A DNA stretch of 24,000 nucleotides, from assembly GCF_010122465.1 (NCBI RefSeq), contig NZ_WLZY01000005.1, positions 218,901 through 242,900 on the forward strand. Reading direction: 5' to 3'. This DNA comes from Phytoactinopolyspora mesophila. GTDB lineage: Bacteria > Actinomycetota > Actinomycetes > Jiangellales > Jiangellaceae. Position numbers and translations under genes: made by a program. Shown piece after piece: positions 8,504 to 19,011 of the stretch (position 1 is its first letter; every line of letters begins with the position of its first letter). The notes below the pieces were generated by a model. The model was not told the origin of the DNA. It ran no database searches and saw nothing but the letters and a program-made list of their open reading frames with translations.

Positions 8504-10084
8504 ATGAGCGCGACAACGGAGTCCGGGCTGCCGATCGAACCCGTCTACGGCCCGGAAGCACTGGATGGCTGGGATCCTGACACGAAGCTGGGGGAGCCGG
8601 GAGCTTATCCGTTCACCCGGGGTGTGTACCCGAACATGTACACCGGCCGGCCGTGGACCATGCGGCAGTACGCCGGCTTCGGGACCGCCGCGGAGTCCAA
8701 CCGGCGCTACCACCAGCTGGTGGAGGCCGGTACGGGAGGGCTGTCGGTGGCCTTCGATCTGCCGACGCAGATGGGTTTCGACTCCGACGCCGCGTTGGTC
8801 AAGGGTGAGGTAGGCAAGGTCGGCGTCGCCATCGACTCGATCGAAGACATGCGGACCCTGTTCGACGGCATCCCGCTGGACCAGGTTTCGACGTCGATGA
8901 CCATCAACGCTCCAGCCGCGCTGCTCCTATTGCTCTATGAACTCGTCGGCGCCGAGCAGGGGGTCGCCGGAGACAAACTCACCGGGACCATCCAGAACGA
9001 TGTACTCAAGGAATACATCGCCCGGGGCACCTATATCTTTCCGCCCGCGGCCTCGCTACGGCTGGTGAGCGACATCTTCGCCTACTGCCGGCGGGAACTC
9101 CCGCGCTGGAACATGATCTCGATCTCCGGCTATCACATGGCCGAGGCCGGTGCCAATCCCGCGCAGGAGGTCGCGTTCACGCTGGCCAACGCCAAGGAAT
9201 ACGTGCGTGCGGCATTGTCGGCCGGACTCGAGGTCGACGAATTCGCGCCCAGGTTGTCCTTCTTCTTCGTCTCGCGGACCTCGTTCCTCGAAGAGGTCGC
9301 CAAGTTCCGCGCCGCCCGCCGGATCTGGGCGCAGATGATGCGGGACGAGTTCGGCGCCAAGAACCCCAAGTCGCAGATGCTCCGGTTTCACACCCAGACC
9401 GCCGGTGTCCAGCTCACCGCACAGCAGCCGGAGGTCAACCTGGTCCGGGTGGCGGTCCAGGCGATGGCGGCGGTGCTGGGCGGAACGCAGTCGTTGCACA
9501 CCAACGCCTACGACGAAGCCATCGCTCTGCCCACGGAGAAGGCGGCGCGACTGGCTCTGCGCACGCAGCAGGTGCTGGCGCACGAGACCGACATTACCCG
9601 CACGGTGGACCCGTTCGCGGGCTCCTACGCGGTCGAGTCGATGACCGACGATCTCGAAGAAGCTGCCCGGGATCTCATGCGCCAGGTCGACGACCTCGGT
9701 GGTGCGGTCGCGGCTATCGAACGCGGCTTCCAGAAGCAGGAGATCGAGCGGTCCGCCTATGCCGTAGCGCAGGAGATCGACCACGGCGATCGGGTCGTCG
9801 TCGGGGTCAACCGCTACAACTCCGACGGCGAGGAGCCGTATGAGCCGCTGCGGGTGGACCCGGAGCTCGAGGCTCAGCAGATCGAGCGGCTGGCGCGGGT
9901 TCGTGAGTCACGGTCGGCCGCCGACGTCGAGCGTTGCCTCGGGGCGTTGCGAGATGCCGCGGCCGGGAAAGCCAACGTGATGGACCCGATGCGTGAGGCA
10001 CTCGCCGCCCGCGCCACCGTCGGTGAGGTGTGTGATGCGCTGCGCGAGACCTGGGGCGTGTACCAGCCCCCGTCGACCCTCTGA
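8504..10084 (+). CDS. Methylmalonyl-CoA mutase family large (substrate-binding TIM-barrel) subunit, without a B12-binding domain
   Basis: 526-aa ORF with GCGAGG as RBS. Strong family motifs are present: [78 protein letters not shown]. The protein ends where the linker to the cobalamin-binding domain would begin, and there is no DxHxxG module. Confidence 0.93.
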
Positions 10085-10089
10085 CCACC

Positions 10090-10208
10090 GTGATCGTGAG
10101 TGGTTTCCTGCCCTTTCCCCAGTGATCGTGAGCGCGATCACGTCGTCATGGCGTCCAGGATCCGCTCATGATCACGGGCGTGTGGAGCGGGATCCTGATC
10201 ACGATCAC
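10090..10208. repeat. 119-bp nested inverted-repeat element, copy E1
   Basis: Four copies of a 12-mer: GTGATCGTGAGt (10090-10101, +), GTGATCGTGAGC (10122-10133, +), GCTCATGATCAC (10164-10175, inverted) and GATCACGATCAC (10197-10208, inverted). The geometry is the same as the element at 18481-18599. It shares the 20-mer TCCGCTCATGATCACGGGCG (10161-10180) with 18585-18604. It starts 5 nt after the mcm stop. Confidence 0.8.
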
Positions 10209-10260
10209 CGGCTGTGGCGATAGAGTGTGGCGCTGTCCGCAGGGCAACGGGAGGAACTTG

Positions 10261-10971
10261 ATGGCAGCCGGCACGGGGATCGCGAAGCATGCGCTGGCCT
10301 GTGCGACGGTGGCAGCGCTGGCCGTCACGGCGTGCGGCGCGGACCGGGAGGAGCCAGAAGGGCTGGGTACCGAAACGCCGGCGGCAACGGATCCGGCCGC
10401 CGACCCCACCGGTGAGGCGACCGGCAATGCGGACGCCACGCCCGGTTCTGACGAGGACGACGTCGATCCGACTGCCGAGCCGGAGGCGTCGTTCACCCAG
10501 CCGCATCTGCCCACCGAAGAGCCGAGCGTCATCGAACTCGACGACGAACTCCCGGTACAGCCGCCAGGCGATGTCAGCGACGACGAACGCGAGGTCCTGG
10601 AAGCGGCCGGCCGGTTCATGGCCACCTGGCAAGCCGTGCTGTTCGGCGCCGACGCGGAACACTCGCGCCTGTATGACACGACCACGGGCGTCCAGCTCGA
10701 CCGTCTCACCTCTCTCATCGACGAGATGGCCGAAGATGAGTGGGTTTTTGTCGGCGAGCCGATGGAACTTGAGGCGCTGAGCGTGAGTGTGGGAGGCGGC
10801 GAGGCCGAGGCCGATCTCTGTATCGGGCTGCCAGGCTGGATCGAGATCCGTGGCGGCGTCGGCGCACCGTTCGGCAGTGTGGAGCGGTATCTGATCAGCT
10901 TGTGGATGGAAGACGGCCGGTGGATGGTGACGGACGCGACCTCGCAAGACACCGCCGAGTGCGACTTTTAG
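10261..10971 (+). CDS. Lipoprotein, uncharacterised family (paralog L2 of 7568..8275)
   Basis: I prefer the ATG at 10261 because GGGAGG lies 6 nt upstream. The track ORF start at 10168 would translate through repeat element E1. Signal peptide with lipobox VTAC|GA, an acidic/Pro-rich linker, and a conserved FTQPHLP...AAGRF..W block shared with L1. Confidence 0.8.
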   Translation: MAAGTGIAKHALACATVAALAVTACGADREEPEGLGTETPAATDPAADPTGEATGNADATPGSDEDDVDPTAEPEASFTQPHLPTEEPSVIELDDELPVQPPGDVSDDEREVLEAAGRFMATWQAVLFGADAEHSRLYDTTTGVQLDRLTSLIDEMAEDEWVFVGEPMELEALSVSVGGGEAEADLCIGLPGWIEIRGGVGAPFGSVERYLISLWMEDGRWMVTDATSQDTAECDF

Positions 10972-14418: not shown

Positions 14419-14460
14419 GTCCTGCGCTGGTAGTCCGCAAACCGACTGCCGGCGCAGGAC
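14419..14460 (+). promoter_or_regulatory. 17-bp intercistronic stem-loop between the binding-protein and ATPase genes
   Basis: 14419-14435 (GTCCTGCGCTGGTAGTC) pairs with 14444-14460 (GACTGCCGGCGCAGGAC): 15 Watson-Crick pairs plus 2 G-U pairs and an 8-nt loop. No U-tract follows, so it looks like an mRNA-stabilising or attenuating hairpin rather than a full terminator. Confidence 0.55.
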
Positions 14461-16073: not shown

Positions 16074-17206
16074 CCCGCGTGGTGGGATGGTTGCGCCGCG
16101 TCGTGCCGACGCTCGTAGCGCTGGGGGTGGCCCTGGTCGTCACCGCGTTGTTCATCCTGATCATCGGTGAGAACCCGTTGCGTGCGGTGGGCGCGTTGTT
16201 CGACTTCGGCGACACCTCGGTAGCTCAGGCGAACTCGATCGGTGTATGGATCAACCGGGCCGCACCGCTGTTTCTCGCCGGGCTAGCCGTCAGCATCGGC
16301 TTTCGGATGGGCCTGTTCAACATCGGCGTCGAGGGTCAGTATCGGGTGGCCACCGTGGTGGCAGCCGGGGTGGGCGCCGCGATCGTCTTGCCAGCTCCGC
16401 TGCACGTCTTCGTGATCGTCATCGCGGCGATGGCTGCCGGCGCCGCCTACGCGGCCATCCCGGCCGTCCTCAAGGTCACCCGTGGCGTCAGTGAGGTCAT
16501 CTCGACGATCATGCTCAACGCCATCGCGATCGGCTTGGTCGCCTGGCTGGTCCGGGTGCCCTTCGTCGATCCCGAGCTGGGCCCGGGTGAGATCGTCGCC
16601 ACCCGCCGGATCGAGGAGTCAGGGCACTTCCCTGGCCTGAACGAGTTGTTCGGTGTGATTGGCCTGGAAGAGCCCCGGCGCCCGGTGCACGGCTTCGTCA
16701 TCGTGGCGATCGTCGTCGGCATCATCATGGCCATCGTGCTCAGCCGGGCGCGGTTTGGATTCGAGTTACGGGCCAGCGGCCTCAACGCGCTGGCCGCCAC
16801 CGCCAACGGTATCTCGTCGAAGGCGATGATCCTGAAAGCGATGCTGCTGTCGGGAGCCCTCGCCGGACTGGTGGGTTTGCCGGATCTGCTCGGATCGGCG
16901 CATCGATTCCATGCTGACTCGTTCGTCGCGGGGTACGGATTCACCGGCATCGCGGTAGCGCTGCTGGGACGAAATCGCCCTGTCGGGATCGCCTTCGCTG
17001 CCTTGCTGTTCGCCTTCCTCGACCGGGCCGGTCCTAGCTTGCAGTCCGAGGGTATTCCGCCCGCCGCGGTGACGATCATGCAGGGAATCGTCGTGTTGTC
17101 GGTGCTGATCGTCGACGAGGTGGCCCGGCGTGGGCTTCTGCGCCGCGAGGAACGAAGGGCCCGGAACCAGGATCGGGATGCCGTGACCGAGGAGGTGCCG
17201 TCGTGA
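16070..17206 (+). CDS. ABC transporter permease (BMP-family system, first permease)
   Basis: 378-aa polytopic hydrophobic ORF. Its ATG overlaps the ATPase stop (ATGA, 16070-16073). Confidence 0.88.
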   Translation: MTRVVGWLRRVVPTLVALGVALVVTALFILIIGENPLRAVGALFDFGDTSVAQANSIGVWINRAAPLFLAGLAVSIGFRMGLFNIGVEGQYRVATVVAAGVGAAIVLPAPLHVFVIVIAAMAAGAAYAAIPAVLKVTRGVSEVISTIMLNAIAIGLVAWLVRVPFVDPELGPGEIVATRRIEESGHFPGLNELFGVIGLEEPRRPVHGFVIVAIVVGIIMAIVLSRARFGFELRASGLNALAATANGISSKAMILKAMLLSGALAGLVGLPDLLGSAHRFHADSFVAGYGFTGIAVALLGRNRPVGIAFAALLFAFLDRAGPSLQSEGIPPAAVTIMQGIVVLSVLIVDEVARRGLLRREERRARNQDRDAVTEEVPS

Positions 17207-18477
17207 CCGGTCAACCCGCCATGCCGATTCAGACAGAGCCCGACGGCGTCAAGTACCAAGTGTCGCGGGTGCAAAAGGCGCTATTGATCGCCGGACTCGG
17301 CTTGGTGGCCATCTCGGCGGTGCGTGTCATCACCGGTGAGACGGTATTGACCAGCAGCGGGACGGCGCGCGCGATGCTCACGCTCGCCCTGCCCATCGCG
17401 ATGTGCGCGCTGGGCGGACTGGTCGCCGAGCGGGCCGGTGTCATCAACATCGGTCTCGAGGGAATGATGATCCTCGGCACCTGGGGTGCGGGGTTCGGCG
17501 GCTGGCAGTACGGCCCGTGGGGAGCGCTGCTCGGCGCGCTCATCGGCGGCGCGCTCGGTGGGCTGCTGCATGCGCTGGCCACTGTGACCTTCGGTGTCGA
17601 CCACATCGTCAGCGGCGTGGCCATCAACCTGGTGGCAGCCGGATTGGTGCGCTTCCTGTCCGAAGCCGTGTACGCCGACAGCACAGAGGGCGGCGGGCCA
17701 ACCATGTCTCCGCCGCTGGGTTCGGTGGACACGTTCAACATTCCGATCCTGTCGTCCGGTCCAAACCTGCTCAGACGGCTGGAAGATACCGATCTGCCGG
17801 TGCTTTCCGACCTCGGCGGCATCTTGCACGGACTCACCAGCGGTCTTACGGTGTTCACGCTGATCATCGTCGCCATGATCCCGCTCGCGTGGTTCGTGCT
17901 GTGGCGCACGGCGTTCGGGCTGCGGCTGCGCTCGGCCGGGGAGAGCCCGGTCGCGGCGGAATCGCTGGGTGTCAATGTCTACAAGATGAAGTATCTGGCC
18001 GTGACCGCCAGCGGTGCGCTGGCCGGCCTCGGTGGGTTCATGCTGGTTATGTTCGAGCAGTCCTATCGGGAGGGGCAGACCGGGGGGAGAGGCTACATAG
18101 GTCTGGCGGCCATGATCTTCGGGAACTGGCGACCAGGCGGTCTCCTCGCCGGCTCCGGGCTGTTCGGTTACGCGGATGCGGTTCGGCTGCGGGCATCGAC
18201 GTCCGCGGCAGTGCTGGCGCTGCTTCTGCTTGTCGGGCTGATCCTCGCGGCTGTGGGCGTGTGGGATCTCTACCGGCGCCGGTACGTGCTCAGCGCTGTC
18301 CTGCTGGTGCTTGCCGGGGCAACCATCCTGGCGTGGGGGACACTCGACGCGCTGCCGCGTGAGGTCACCACCATGACGCCGTACCTGGTGACCCTGGCTG
18401 TGCTGGCGACTGCCACTCAACGGCTCAGGCCGCCGGCGGCCGACGGTATGCGGTACCGCCGGGGCGAAGAACATTAA
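17203..18477 (+). CDS. ABC transporter permease (BMP-family system, second permease)
   Basis: 424-aa polytopic hydrophobic ORF. Its GTG start overlaps the preceding stop (GTGA, 17203-17206). Confidence 0.88.
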   Translation: MTGQPAMPIQTEPDGVKYQVSRVQKALLIAGLGLVAISAVRVITGETVLTSSGTARAMLTLALPIAMCALGGLVAERAGVINIGLEGMMILGTWGAGFGGWQYGPWGALLGALIGGALGGLLHALATVTFGVDHIVSGVAINLVAAGLVRFLSEAVYADSTEGGGPTMSPPLGSVDTFNIPILSSGPNLLRRLEDTDLPVLSDLGGILHGLTSGLTVFTLIIVAMIPLAWFVLWRTAFGLRLRSAGESPVAAESLGVNVYKMKYLAVTASGALAGLGGFMLVMFEQSYREGQTGGRGYIGLAAMIFGNWRPGGLLAGSGLFGYADAVRLRASTSAAVLALLLLVGLILAAVGVWDLYRRRYVLSAVLLVLAGATILAWGTLDALPREVTTMTPYLVTLAVLATATQRLRPPAADGMRYRRGEEH

Positions 18478-18480
18478 CCG

Positions 18481-18599
18481 GTGATCATGAGCTGATTCGC
18501 GCTGGCGGCGCCGGTGATCGTGAGCAATATCCGGCCGCTATGGTGACTCAGATTTGCTCACGATCACCGGACGTGGAGCAGATTTCCGCTCATGATCAC
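18481..18599. repeat. 119-bp nested inverted-repeat element, copy E2
   Basis: GTGATCATGAGC (18481-18492, +), GTGATCGTGAGC (18514-18525, +), GCTCACGATCAC (18556-18567, inverted) and GCTCATGATCAC (18588-18599, inverted). The outer pair and the inner pair are each perfectly complementary (12/12). It starts 3 nt after the permease TAA stop and ends 28 nt before the cdd ATG. Confidence 0.85.
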
Positions 18600-18627
18600 G
18601 GGCGGGGATGACGGGAGGACATGAGGG

Positions 18628-19011
18628 ATGAACGAGACTTTCGACTGGGTGGGATTGCGCGCGGCGGCCGCGGAAGCGTCGTACCGGGCATACGCGCCGT
18701 ACTCGTCGTTCCCTGTGGGCGCGGCCGCACTGGTCGACGACGGCCGCCTCGTCACCGGCTGCAACGTGGAGAACGCGTCGTACGGGCTGACGTTGTGTGC
18801 CGAATGTGGCTTGGTGTCGTCCTTGATCGCCACCGGCGGAGGCCGCCTGGTGGCGTTCAGCTGTGTGGGTGGTGAAGAGCGTGAGACGATCATGCCGTGT
18901 GGGCGTTGCCGGCAGCTGCTGTGGGAGCACGGGGGCCCGGAACTGCTCGTAGACACCCCCGAGGGCGTGCTGAGCATGTCGCAGGTGCTTCCGCAGGCGT
19001 TCAGCCTGTGA
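18628..19011 (+). CDS. cdd: Cytidine deaminase (small homotetrameric type)
   Basis: 127-aa ORF with the zinc-binding motifs CAECG and PCGRCRQ at the spacing typical of Cdd. Confidence 0.93.
   Translation: MNETFDWVGLRAAAAEASYRAYAPYSSFPVGAAALVDDGRLVTGCNVENASYGLTLCAECGLVSSLIATGGGRLVAFSCVGGEERETIMPCGRCRQLLWEHGGPELLVDTPEGVLSMSQVLPQAFSL

Follow-up and report, generated by a model that had tools for sequence, protein, structure and literature searches.

Two imperfect palindromes of 119 bp lie just behind stop codons in a 24,000-nt stretch of the Phytoactinopolyspora mesophila genome (hereafter the window), and the question that they raise is what such elements are and by what means they came to stand there. 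Each consists of four copies of a 12-mer arm, two direct ones followed by two inverted ones (++--), around a central mini-palindrome. The window corresponds to contig 23:218901-242900 of the source genome (G000; assembly of 6.51 Mb, 66% G+C, 27 contigs), and plain coordinates refer to the window. From the comparisons described below, both elements emerge as solo copies, without coding capacity, of a family of hairpin repeats, and we consider it probable that this family is paired with a gene for a winged helix-turn-helix (wHTH) plus Vsr-like nuclease. Such a pairing would be a counterpart of the partnership between the repetitive extragenic palindromic (REP) repeats, including their hairpin-forming doublets (REPINs), and the REP-associated tyrosine transposase (RAYT).

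A hairpin family at gene 3' ends

The exact 12-mer arm was found 176 times in G000 versus 0 times for the reversed pattern, and a profile search yielded 106 loci. Searched as an inverted pair, the 8-nt core (GTGATCRT...AYGATCAC) gave 148 loci versus 8 in the opposite, minus-then-plus arrangement, which was chosen as control because the reversed 8-mer contains CTAG. The counts of the single 8-mer GTGATCRT and its complement (1580 versus 43 reversed) have a control biased by CTAG avoidance and were not used as evidence. The core search also revealed a second subfamily, A2 (arms GTGATCGTCAGT; ~60 loci, mostly 87 bp), equal in size to that of the window elements, A1 (arms GTGATCGTGAGC). A preliminary description of this DNA had allowed that the two window copies might be the only ones; the union of the searches holds 157 A-type (A1 and A2) loci, and hairpins with a stem starting in TGATC(R)T occupy at least 306 loci. 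Further subfamilies of this superfamily in G000 are of the types TGATCATGAACA (45), TGATCATGTTTG (41), TGATCATGGGC (35), and TGATCATTG... Members of the large subfamilies TGATCATGAACACT (~45 loci) and TGATCATGTTTGGT (~41 loci) often stand at the two sides of one gene.

The A-type loci comprise the architectures +- (47), ++-- (35), ++- (33), and +-- (19) as well as forms with more arms (22). Their lengths are 54 bp (+-), 86/87 bp (+-, ++-, and +--), and 119/120 bp (++--), and larger forms exist. One copy in the congener G003 carries an exact duplication of a 33-bp arm-plus-spacer unit that is mirrored on both sides (+++---).

What is conserved is the hairpin, its base pairing being maintained by covariation. 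At arm positions 9-12 of the A types, the same change was seen on both sides 144 times and on one side only 34 times. The stem of the 86/87-bp copies extends over ~25 bp, and its variable positions are paired in 0.56-0.76 of the copies versus 0.30-0.50 with shuffled partners. From 26 nested copies, RNAalifold recovered both 12-bp helices, most of those pairs being invariant. In four orthologous pairs from G000 and G003, the 8-nt cores differ at 6/132 positions and the remainder at 63/285 (Fisher 1.8e-6), from which it follows that resident copies hold the core constant, with some bias added by the method by which copies were found. Complementarity of the flanks beyond 2 nt was barely above that with shuffled partners (gapless comparison) and is mostly explained by composition, C being abundant in the 5' flanks and G in the 3' flanks.

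Genes were called with a codon-usage log-odds model and not curated (5538 genes, 87% coding in G000). According to these calls, 154/157 A-type loci and 281/306 superfamily loci are intergenic, and the motif is thus not equally frequent in coding DNA, a possibility raised in the preliminary description. The A-type loci were convergent in 51, tandem in 86, and divergent in 17 cases, with 24, 86, and 44 expected by spacer length (p 5e-11). In tandem spacers, 71/86 copies are nearer to the upstream stop, the median distances being 13.5 nt to that stop versus 80.5 nt to the next start. Gene 3' ends facing an element number 176, and 33 of these genes terminate at the TGA within the element's terminal TGATC; each of the other stop-to-element distances accounts for at most six cases, and distances of 0 to 3 are absent. 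The stop-in-element pattern recurs in loci of other genera and families. At contig 2:190188-190307 of G000, a nested A1 element fills the 105-nt spacer of two convergent genes, both of which end within its arms, one via the TGA of GTGATC and the other via a TAG from the variant arm GTTAGC.

The elements are insertion polymorphic. Relatives were compared for empty sites, as the preliminary description had proposed, and such sites were found for both window copies. The site of copy 1 is without an element in 4/4 congeners (G001-G004), with clean boundaries (...CTCTGACCACC^CGCCGGCGG in G003 versus ...CTCTGACCACC[119 bp]CGGCTGTGG in G000). The site of copy 2 (permease-cdd junction, 18478-18627) has no element in G003 and G004, and in G001 and G002 a B-type element occupies it. 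B-type denotes a different palindromic subfamily of ~92 bp with arms AAATGATCATGTGAAGTAGG and a central CTGCAG, and its arm occurs 164 times in G001 and 0 times in G000. The B-type copies of G001 are very homogeneous (18 inspected copies were near-identical), which suggests a recent burst in that genome. Of the A-type copies of G003, 13 were fetched; four of them have an orthologous copy in G000, and most others are present in one of these two genomes only or take a different form at the same site. At G003:C34 ~115,250-115,440, an A-type element is immediately preceded on its 5' side by a long C-rich tandem repeat of ~14 CCCCCACA-like units; both are missing from the orthologous site of G000.

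Exact A-type arm pairs occur only in G000 and G003 among 58 genomes of the family, and ~185,000 species genomes gave scattered single matches only. Records of Phytoactinopolyspora halotolerans and Jiangella endophytica contain B-type hairpins. In 53/58 family genomes, the generic hairpin TGATCRTG-N(26-104)-CAYGATCA is present with up to 242 matches (reversed control 0-1). Furthermore, its counts in at least nine other families of the class (51, 39, 24, 24, 19, 19, 18, 15 ...) are well in excess of a background of 0-5; the stem sequence is particular to each family, and forms with multiple arms recur.

Nuclease genes between hairpins

Genes bracketed by hairpins of the same type number ~6/5538 in G000. 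Four paralogues of one putative nuclease family, for which the genome shows 8 DUF559 matches and 13 family-profile matches, have one hairpin type on both sides (Table 1). The A2 elements around the paralogue at C12:324061-325089 share the GTGATCGT stem base with A1. Its homologue in G003 (57% identity; C12:364145-365131) has A1-type elements at both sides, including a full 120-bp ++-- copy, the architecture of the window elements, 13 nt from the end of the gene. The orthologous place in G000 holds a solo A1 element only (C26:326590-326708), the G000 paralogue being elsewhere; the location of the hairpin-gene-hairpin unit therefore differs between species.

Further brackets, each with its own hairpin type, were found in G002, G003, and G068. 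Of 27 homologues in other families, three (in G166, G199, and G187) are bracketed by strict match. On inspection, three more, G034:C142, G163:C2, and G166:C4 proved to be bracketed by related hairpins, and a nuclease gene of G045 is also bracketed, as judged from coordinates. No bracketed nuclease was found in G000 for the TGATCATGAACACT or TGATCATGTTTGGT subfamilies.

Pfam assigns to the encoded protein an N-terminal AbiEi_4 winged helix (weak-to-clear) and a C-terminal DUF559/REase_MTES_1575 domain. Residues D271 and E282 are invariant in six aligned paralogues and lie within a PD...ExD..H pattern. A search of PDB by sequence gave no match for the nuclease. In the AlphaFold model both end domains are confident (C-terminal pLDDT 76-93), and the modelled C-terminal domain superimposes on the catalytic domain of the homing endonuclease I-Bth0305I (3r3p; TM 0.77-0.78, probability 1.0) and on the putative endonuclease-like protein NGO0050 (3hrl; TM 0.77).

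The following mechanism is proposed for this pair. What defines the family is an unvarying base of the stem, in which (G)TGATC(R)T pairs with A(Y)GATCA(C), the stem above being free to vary as long as it pairs. Elements grow in a modular manner, with the arm-plus-spacer unit of ~33 bp present one, two, or three times per side. The dedicated partner gene, itself placed between two cognate hairpins, is predicted to encode an AbiEi-like winged helix in the N-terminal part of its product and a Vsr-like (DUF559) nuclease domain in the C-terminal part. This predicted nuclease may recognise the conserved stem base on an extruded or single-stranded hairpin and nick there, and nicking could drive copying, relocation, or gene-conversion-like homogenisation, as RAYT does for REP/REPIN. 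As the genus diverged, gene 3' flanks have gained or lost copies, which sit at or just past stops and are free of target duplication. Each copy would add a very stable hairpin lacking a U-tract to the 3' end of neighbouring transcripts, for which a role as a site for RNase III or an exonuclease barrier appears likelier than that of an intrinsic terminator.

The window copies

The coordinates of both window elements, their neighbours, and the bracketed nuclease genes of G000 are collected in Table 1. All eight arms lie where the preliminary description had placed them, and its geometry (32/54/33 in copy 1 and 33/54/32 in copy 2, 119 bp in total for each) is correct. Likewise, its view of the two copies as diverged homologues is borne out by their membership in the dispersed family of imperfect palindromes. 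It had also pointed to an extra partial copy, GCGATCAC, at 10134-10141; this is present but private to copy 1, the family consensus there being GGATTCCG. Within the window, GTGATCRTGAGC arms gave eight matches at ≤1 mismatch versus a mean of 0.50 in 100 shuffles, none of which reached eight.

Table 1. Features of the window (plain coordinates) and hairpin-bracketed nuclease genes elsewhere in G000 (with contig)
Feature	Position	Strand	Remarks
Copy 1, nested (++--) A1-type hairpin element	10090..10208	.	119 bp
Copy 1, outer left arm GTGATCGTGAGT	10090..10101	+	1 mismatch to arm consensus
Copy 1, inner left arm GTGATCGTGAGC	10122..10133	+	
Copy 1, central mini-palindrome GTCGTCATGGCGTC	10142..10155	.	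Family consensus GTCGCTATAGCGAC
Copy 1, inner right arm GCTCATGATCAC (+ strand letters)	10164..10175	-	
Copy 1, outer right arm GATCACGATCAC (+ strand letters)	10197..10208	-	1 mismatch
Copy 2, nested A1-type element	18481..18599	.	119 bp
Copy 2, outer left arm GTGATCATGAGC	18481..18492	+	
Copy 2, inner left arm GTGATCGTGAGC	18514..18525	+	
Copy 2, central mini-palindrome GCCGCTATGGTGAC	18534..18547	.	
Copy 2, inner right arm	18556..18567	-	
Copy 2, outer right arm	18588..18599	-	
Methylmalonyl-CoA mutase family gene, upstream of copy 1	8504..10084	+	Pfam MM_CoA_mutase, E 1.8e-221
Lipoprotein gene, downstream of copy 1	10261..10971	+	No Pfam hit; probable true start 10261, outside the element
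ABC permease gene, upstream of copy 2	17203..18477	+	Pfam BPD_transp_2
Cytidine deaminase gene, downstream of copy 2	18628..19011	+	Pfam dCMP_cyt_deam_1
Nuclease paralogue	C12:15044-16069		Bracketed by TGATCATTGACAGT hairpins; AbiEi_4 E 2.7e-9; profile-profile 99.5% probability of homology to the family
Nuclease paralogue	C12:94639-95643		Bracketed by TGATCATGGGCA hairpins
Nuclease paralogue	C23:277414-278505		Bracketed by TGATCATTGTGC hairpins
Nuclease paralogue	C12:324061-325089		Bracketed by A2-type elements at 323947-324035 and 325221-325309

As had been noted before, both copies stand beside stop codons. Copy 1 starts 5 nt past the TGA of the methylmalonyl-CoA mutase family gene, and copy 2 starts 3 nt past the TAA of the ABC permease gene, the cytidine deaminase gene following 28 nt further on. 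RNA folding, also suggested earlier, gave very stable hairpins (copy 1, -74.6 kcal/mol, z -5.1; copy 2, -74.2 kcal/mol, z -6.9). On both strands of both copies a single long hairpin forms, composed of the two 12-bp helices and a central GTCGC-TATA-GCGAC-like stem, with energies from -62 to -75 kcal/mol (z -3.6 to -8.6). Rfam 15 gave no match at gathering score in the window and matches at chance level only (E above 2) at the element. Another strong intercistronic hairpin, at 14419-14460, is without the TGATC core and falls outside the superfamily.

An ATG at 10168 lies inside copy 1 and opens the lipoprotein reading frame 31 codons ahead of the ATG at 10261. Because the latter stands behind a ribosome-binding site, GGGAGGA, and is the start of a lipoprotein-type signal (LAVTAC), the longer frame is probably an artefact and its 31-codon extension plausibly spurious, in agreement with the preliminary description. 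Automated annotation is likely to over-extend this gene (10168-10260) and similar ones.

Weighing the explanations and known systems

Several points weigh against the pairing of hairpins with the nuclease. Among the 27 paralogues in other families, nine stand without any adjoining hairpin, and 12 are accompanied by a hairpin on a single side. The nuclease family occurs in 58/58 family genomes, including those almost devoid of TGATC hairpins, in which other hairpin families seem to take that place; since the family is ubiquitous, presence or number of nuclease paralogues fails as a simple predictor of the TGATC-hairpin count. In G000 itself, no nuclease gene is bracketed by A1 arms, and the link runs via the GTGATCGT base shared with A2 and via the G003 homologue. 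Additionally, the DUF559 Pfam scores are near the cut-off, and the structure model is poor in its middle third. Nor was a sign of selection at the RNA level seen: 41 tandem copies showed no excess of stability on the sense strand (17 vs 23, p 0.37), and the three-arm forms showed no orientation bias relative to transcription (17 vs 14).

Despite these points, we retain the pairing of the hairpins with the wHTH plus Vsr-like nuclease as the probable explanation. A wider proposal, which we would place just short of probable, is that of a class-wide system in Actinomycetes. Each family of stop-codon hairpins would have a wHTH plus Vsr-like nuclease of its own that keeps or spreads it, which would make a second, independent invention of the REPIN-RAYT type, based on nicking by a nuclease and not on an HUH transposase, and TRIT, a motif of Mycobacterium named for Tuberculosis Rho-independent terminator, may be a branch of it.

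It is unlikely, in our view, that the hairpins are instead RNA elements useful to the host, acting at transcript 3' ends as RNase III sites, exonuclease barriers, or bidirectional terminators, with a base read by an RNA-binding factor and an incidental link to the nuclease. The two ideas are partly compatible. Such a function would agree with the close attachment to stop codons, the enrichment between convergent genes, the very stable folds, and the conserved core of orthologous copies. By analogy, recent 3'-end data for TRIT and for Correia repeats favour RNase III processing over termination (PMC13714241; 10.1101/2022.06.01.494293), their 3' ends being consistent with RNase III cleavage (PMC13714241). 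However, TRIT-type hairpins overlapped only 2-4% of mapped M. tuberculosis termination sites (10.1101/2022.06.01.494293), and a U-tract is absent from our elements, the right flank being G-rich with T ≤23% at each of 14 positions; this absence agrees with processing rather than termination. An intrinsic (Rho-independent) terminator, of which the hairpin is present but the U-tract is not, was rejected on these grounds. The lack of a sense-strand excess counts here as well, and G-U over A-C mismatches show only a weak excess (47 vs 30). Moreover, an RNA function sits poorly with the varying presence of copies at conserved gene junctions among congeners, and it leaves the hairpins on the 5' side of the nuclease genes unexplained.

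The account that we treat as the main rival regards the nuclease genes as selfish, homing-type genes that landed in pre-existing hairpins, which themselves spread by another route; we judge it distinctly improbable. Some insertion sequence (IS) elements insert into REPs, which offers a parallel. The resemblance of the catalytic domain to a homing endonuclease fits such a history, as does the contrast between the element-nuclease-element unit of G003 and the solo element of G000. On the other hand, insertion into a hairpin would leave halves, and the account is weakened because both flanks carry complete hairpins. Each paralogue, furthermore, has its own multi-copy hairpin type, and the dispersal of the hairpins would stay unexplained.

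That the elements are ordinary IS-derived miniature inverted-repeat transposable elements (MITEs) moved by a DDE transposase is very improbable. Terminal inverted repeats, small size, high copy number, and insertion polymorphism would suit a MITE, but neither the flanks of 74 copies (no direct repeats ≥3 bp; 2-bp matches as in the control) nor the filled/empty comparison at the copy 1 site gave a target-site duplication. No coding element enclosed by an arm pair, that is, no autonomous version, was found; the few long IS-like repeats in G000 have ends unrelated to the arms, a plasmid collection gave no relevant match, and the stems vary yet stay complementary. The genes between closely spaced A1/A2 elements are ordinary metabolic ones, with no transposase among them, and TnpB was not found. 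A classical MITE is therefore rejected, as there is neither a target-site duplication nor an IS with the same ends. The preliminary description had likened the elements to REP/ERIC repeats or a MITE; dispersed REP- or MITE-like palindromes they are, and what does not stand is the classical MITE and, as set out below, REP/RAYT. A ~1.3-kb repeat, present in multiple copies in G000 (contig 1:676176-677522, C25:391421-392725, C27:1-733, and C1:309990-311663), does not adjoin hairpins; judged by eye from the N-terminal sequence, we take it to encode a DUF222/HNH-type protein, as in the mycobacterial REP13E12 repeats.

Four operator sites bound by one DNA-binding regulator had been offered as an alternative in the preliminary description, and the conserved 12-mer arms, 32-33 bp (about three helical turns) apart in the nested form, would suit them. 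This reading can practically be dismissed because spacing and arm number vary over the family (54, 86/87, 119/120 bp, and larger), the elements are found at the 3' ends of genes and are scarce in divergent promoter regions, and compensatory changes keep the pairing and not the sequence.

If the pairing with the nuclease is true, it would represent a new repeat-enzyme partnership, with a dedicated Vsr-like nuclease and hundreds of gene ends per genome affected, the stop codon often being supplied by the repeat. It would provide a biochemical handle on DUF559 proteins and possibly a lead on the nature of actinobacterial TRIT-like motifs. In practice, the elements create false N-terminal extensions of open reading frames (as at 10168), alter C-termini, and serve as markers of strain divergence. 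Few non-coding features of bacterial genomes are more common than dispersed palindromic repeats, and for only a small number of these has a cognate enzyme been firmly established, most clearly in REP/RAYT.

Correia (Neisseria), ERIC (enterobacteria), and RUP/BOX (pneumococcus) are MITE-like repeats, Correia and RUP having a TA target duplication and IS-like ends. By analogy, the present elements would resemble them in being imperfectly palindromic, 100-150 bp long, and transcribed together with the genes beside them; they are also insertion polymorphic and may act as RNA processing sites. In contrast, those repeats are not known to have a nuclease gene of their own that they bracket; they are unrelated in sequence, and Rfam gave no matching family here.

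TRIT is present in Mycobacterium in 147 copies, is bidirectional, and occupies a narrow position overlapping the stop codon; there is no good evidence that it terminates transcription, and a sequence-specific factor is suspected (PMC3152330; PMC13714241). Like TRIT, our elements are an actinobacterial, lineage-restricted, conserved palindromic motif with stop-codon overlap (33/176; tandem median 13.5 nt). TRIT differs, when compared by its published description, as a single hairpin of ~50 nt reported only in Mycobacterium, and no partner gene is mentioned for it (PMC3152330; PMC13714241).

The modelled partner can be compared with the Vsr-like (EDxHD) homing endonuclease I-Bth0305I and with DUF559 proteins, since its predicted catalytic domain appears to have the same fold (3r3p, 3hrl; PMC3239194). 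I-Bth0305I is intron-encoded and cuts the intron-less allele (PMC3239194), whereas the partner gene described here is free-standing, with a hairpin at either end, and its predicted product includes a DNA-binding domain of AbiEi-like type.

A REP/RAYT system proper was rejected: the Y1 (HUH) RAYT transposase (PF01797) had 0 matches in G000, G001-G004, and G068, with positive control genomes. REP/REPIN with RAYT is known mainly from Proteobacteria and was reportedly worked out by Nunvar (2010), Bertels and Rainey (2011), and Ton-Hoang (2012). The likeness lies in short extragenic palindromes with tens to hundreds of copies and compensatory stem changes, which were also found here, in a sequence particular to the lineage, with a short motif at the base of the stem that does not vary, in singlet or doublet forms, in a repeat-bracketed partner gene, and in the location at gene 3' ends. 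The differences are that the Y1 transposase was not found in these six genomes, that the partner is a wHTH plus Vsr-like/DUF559 nuclease with many paralogues per genome, that the invariant motif is TGATC(R)T here and GTAG in REP, and that the elements described here often supply the stop codon. The preliminary description recognised no described family, and literature on the sequence, the taxon, and DUF559 with repeats likewise held no relevant description. By analogy, the system looks like an actinobacterial counterpart of REPIN/RAYT for which no prior description was found in the literature.

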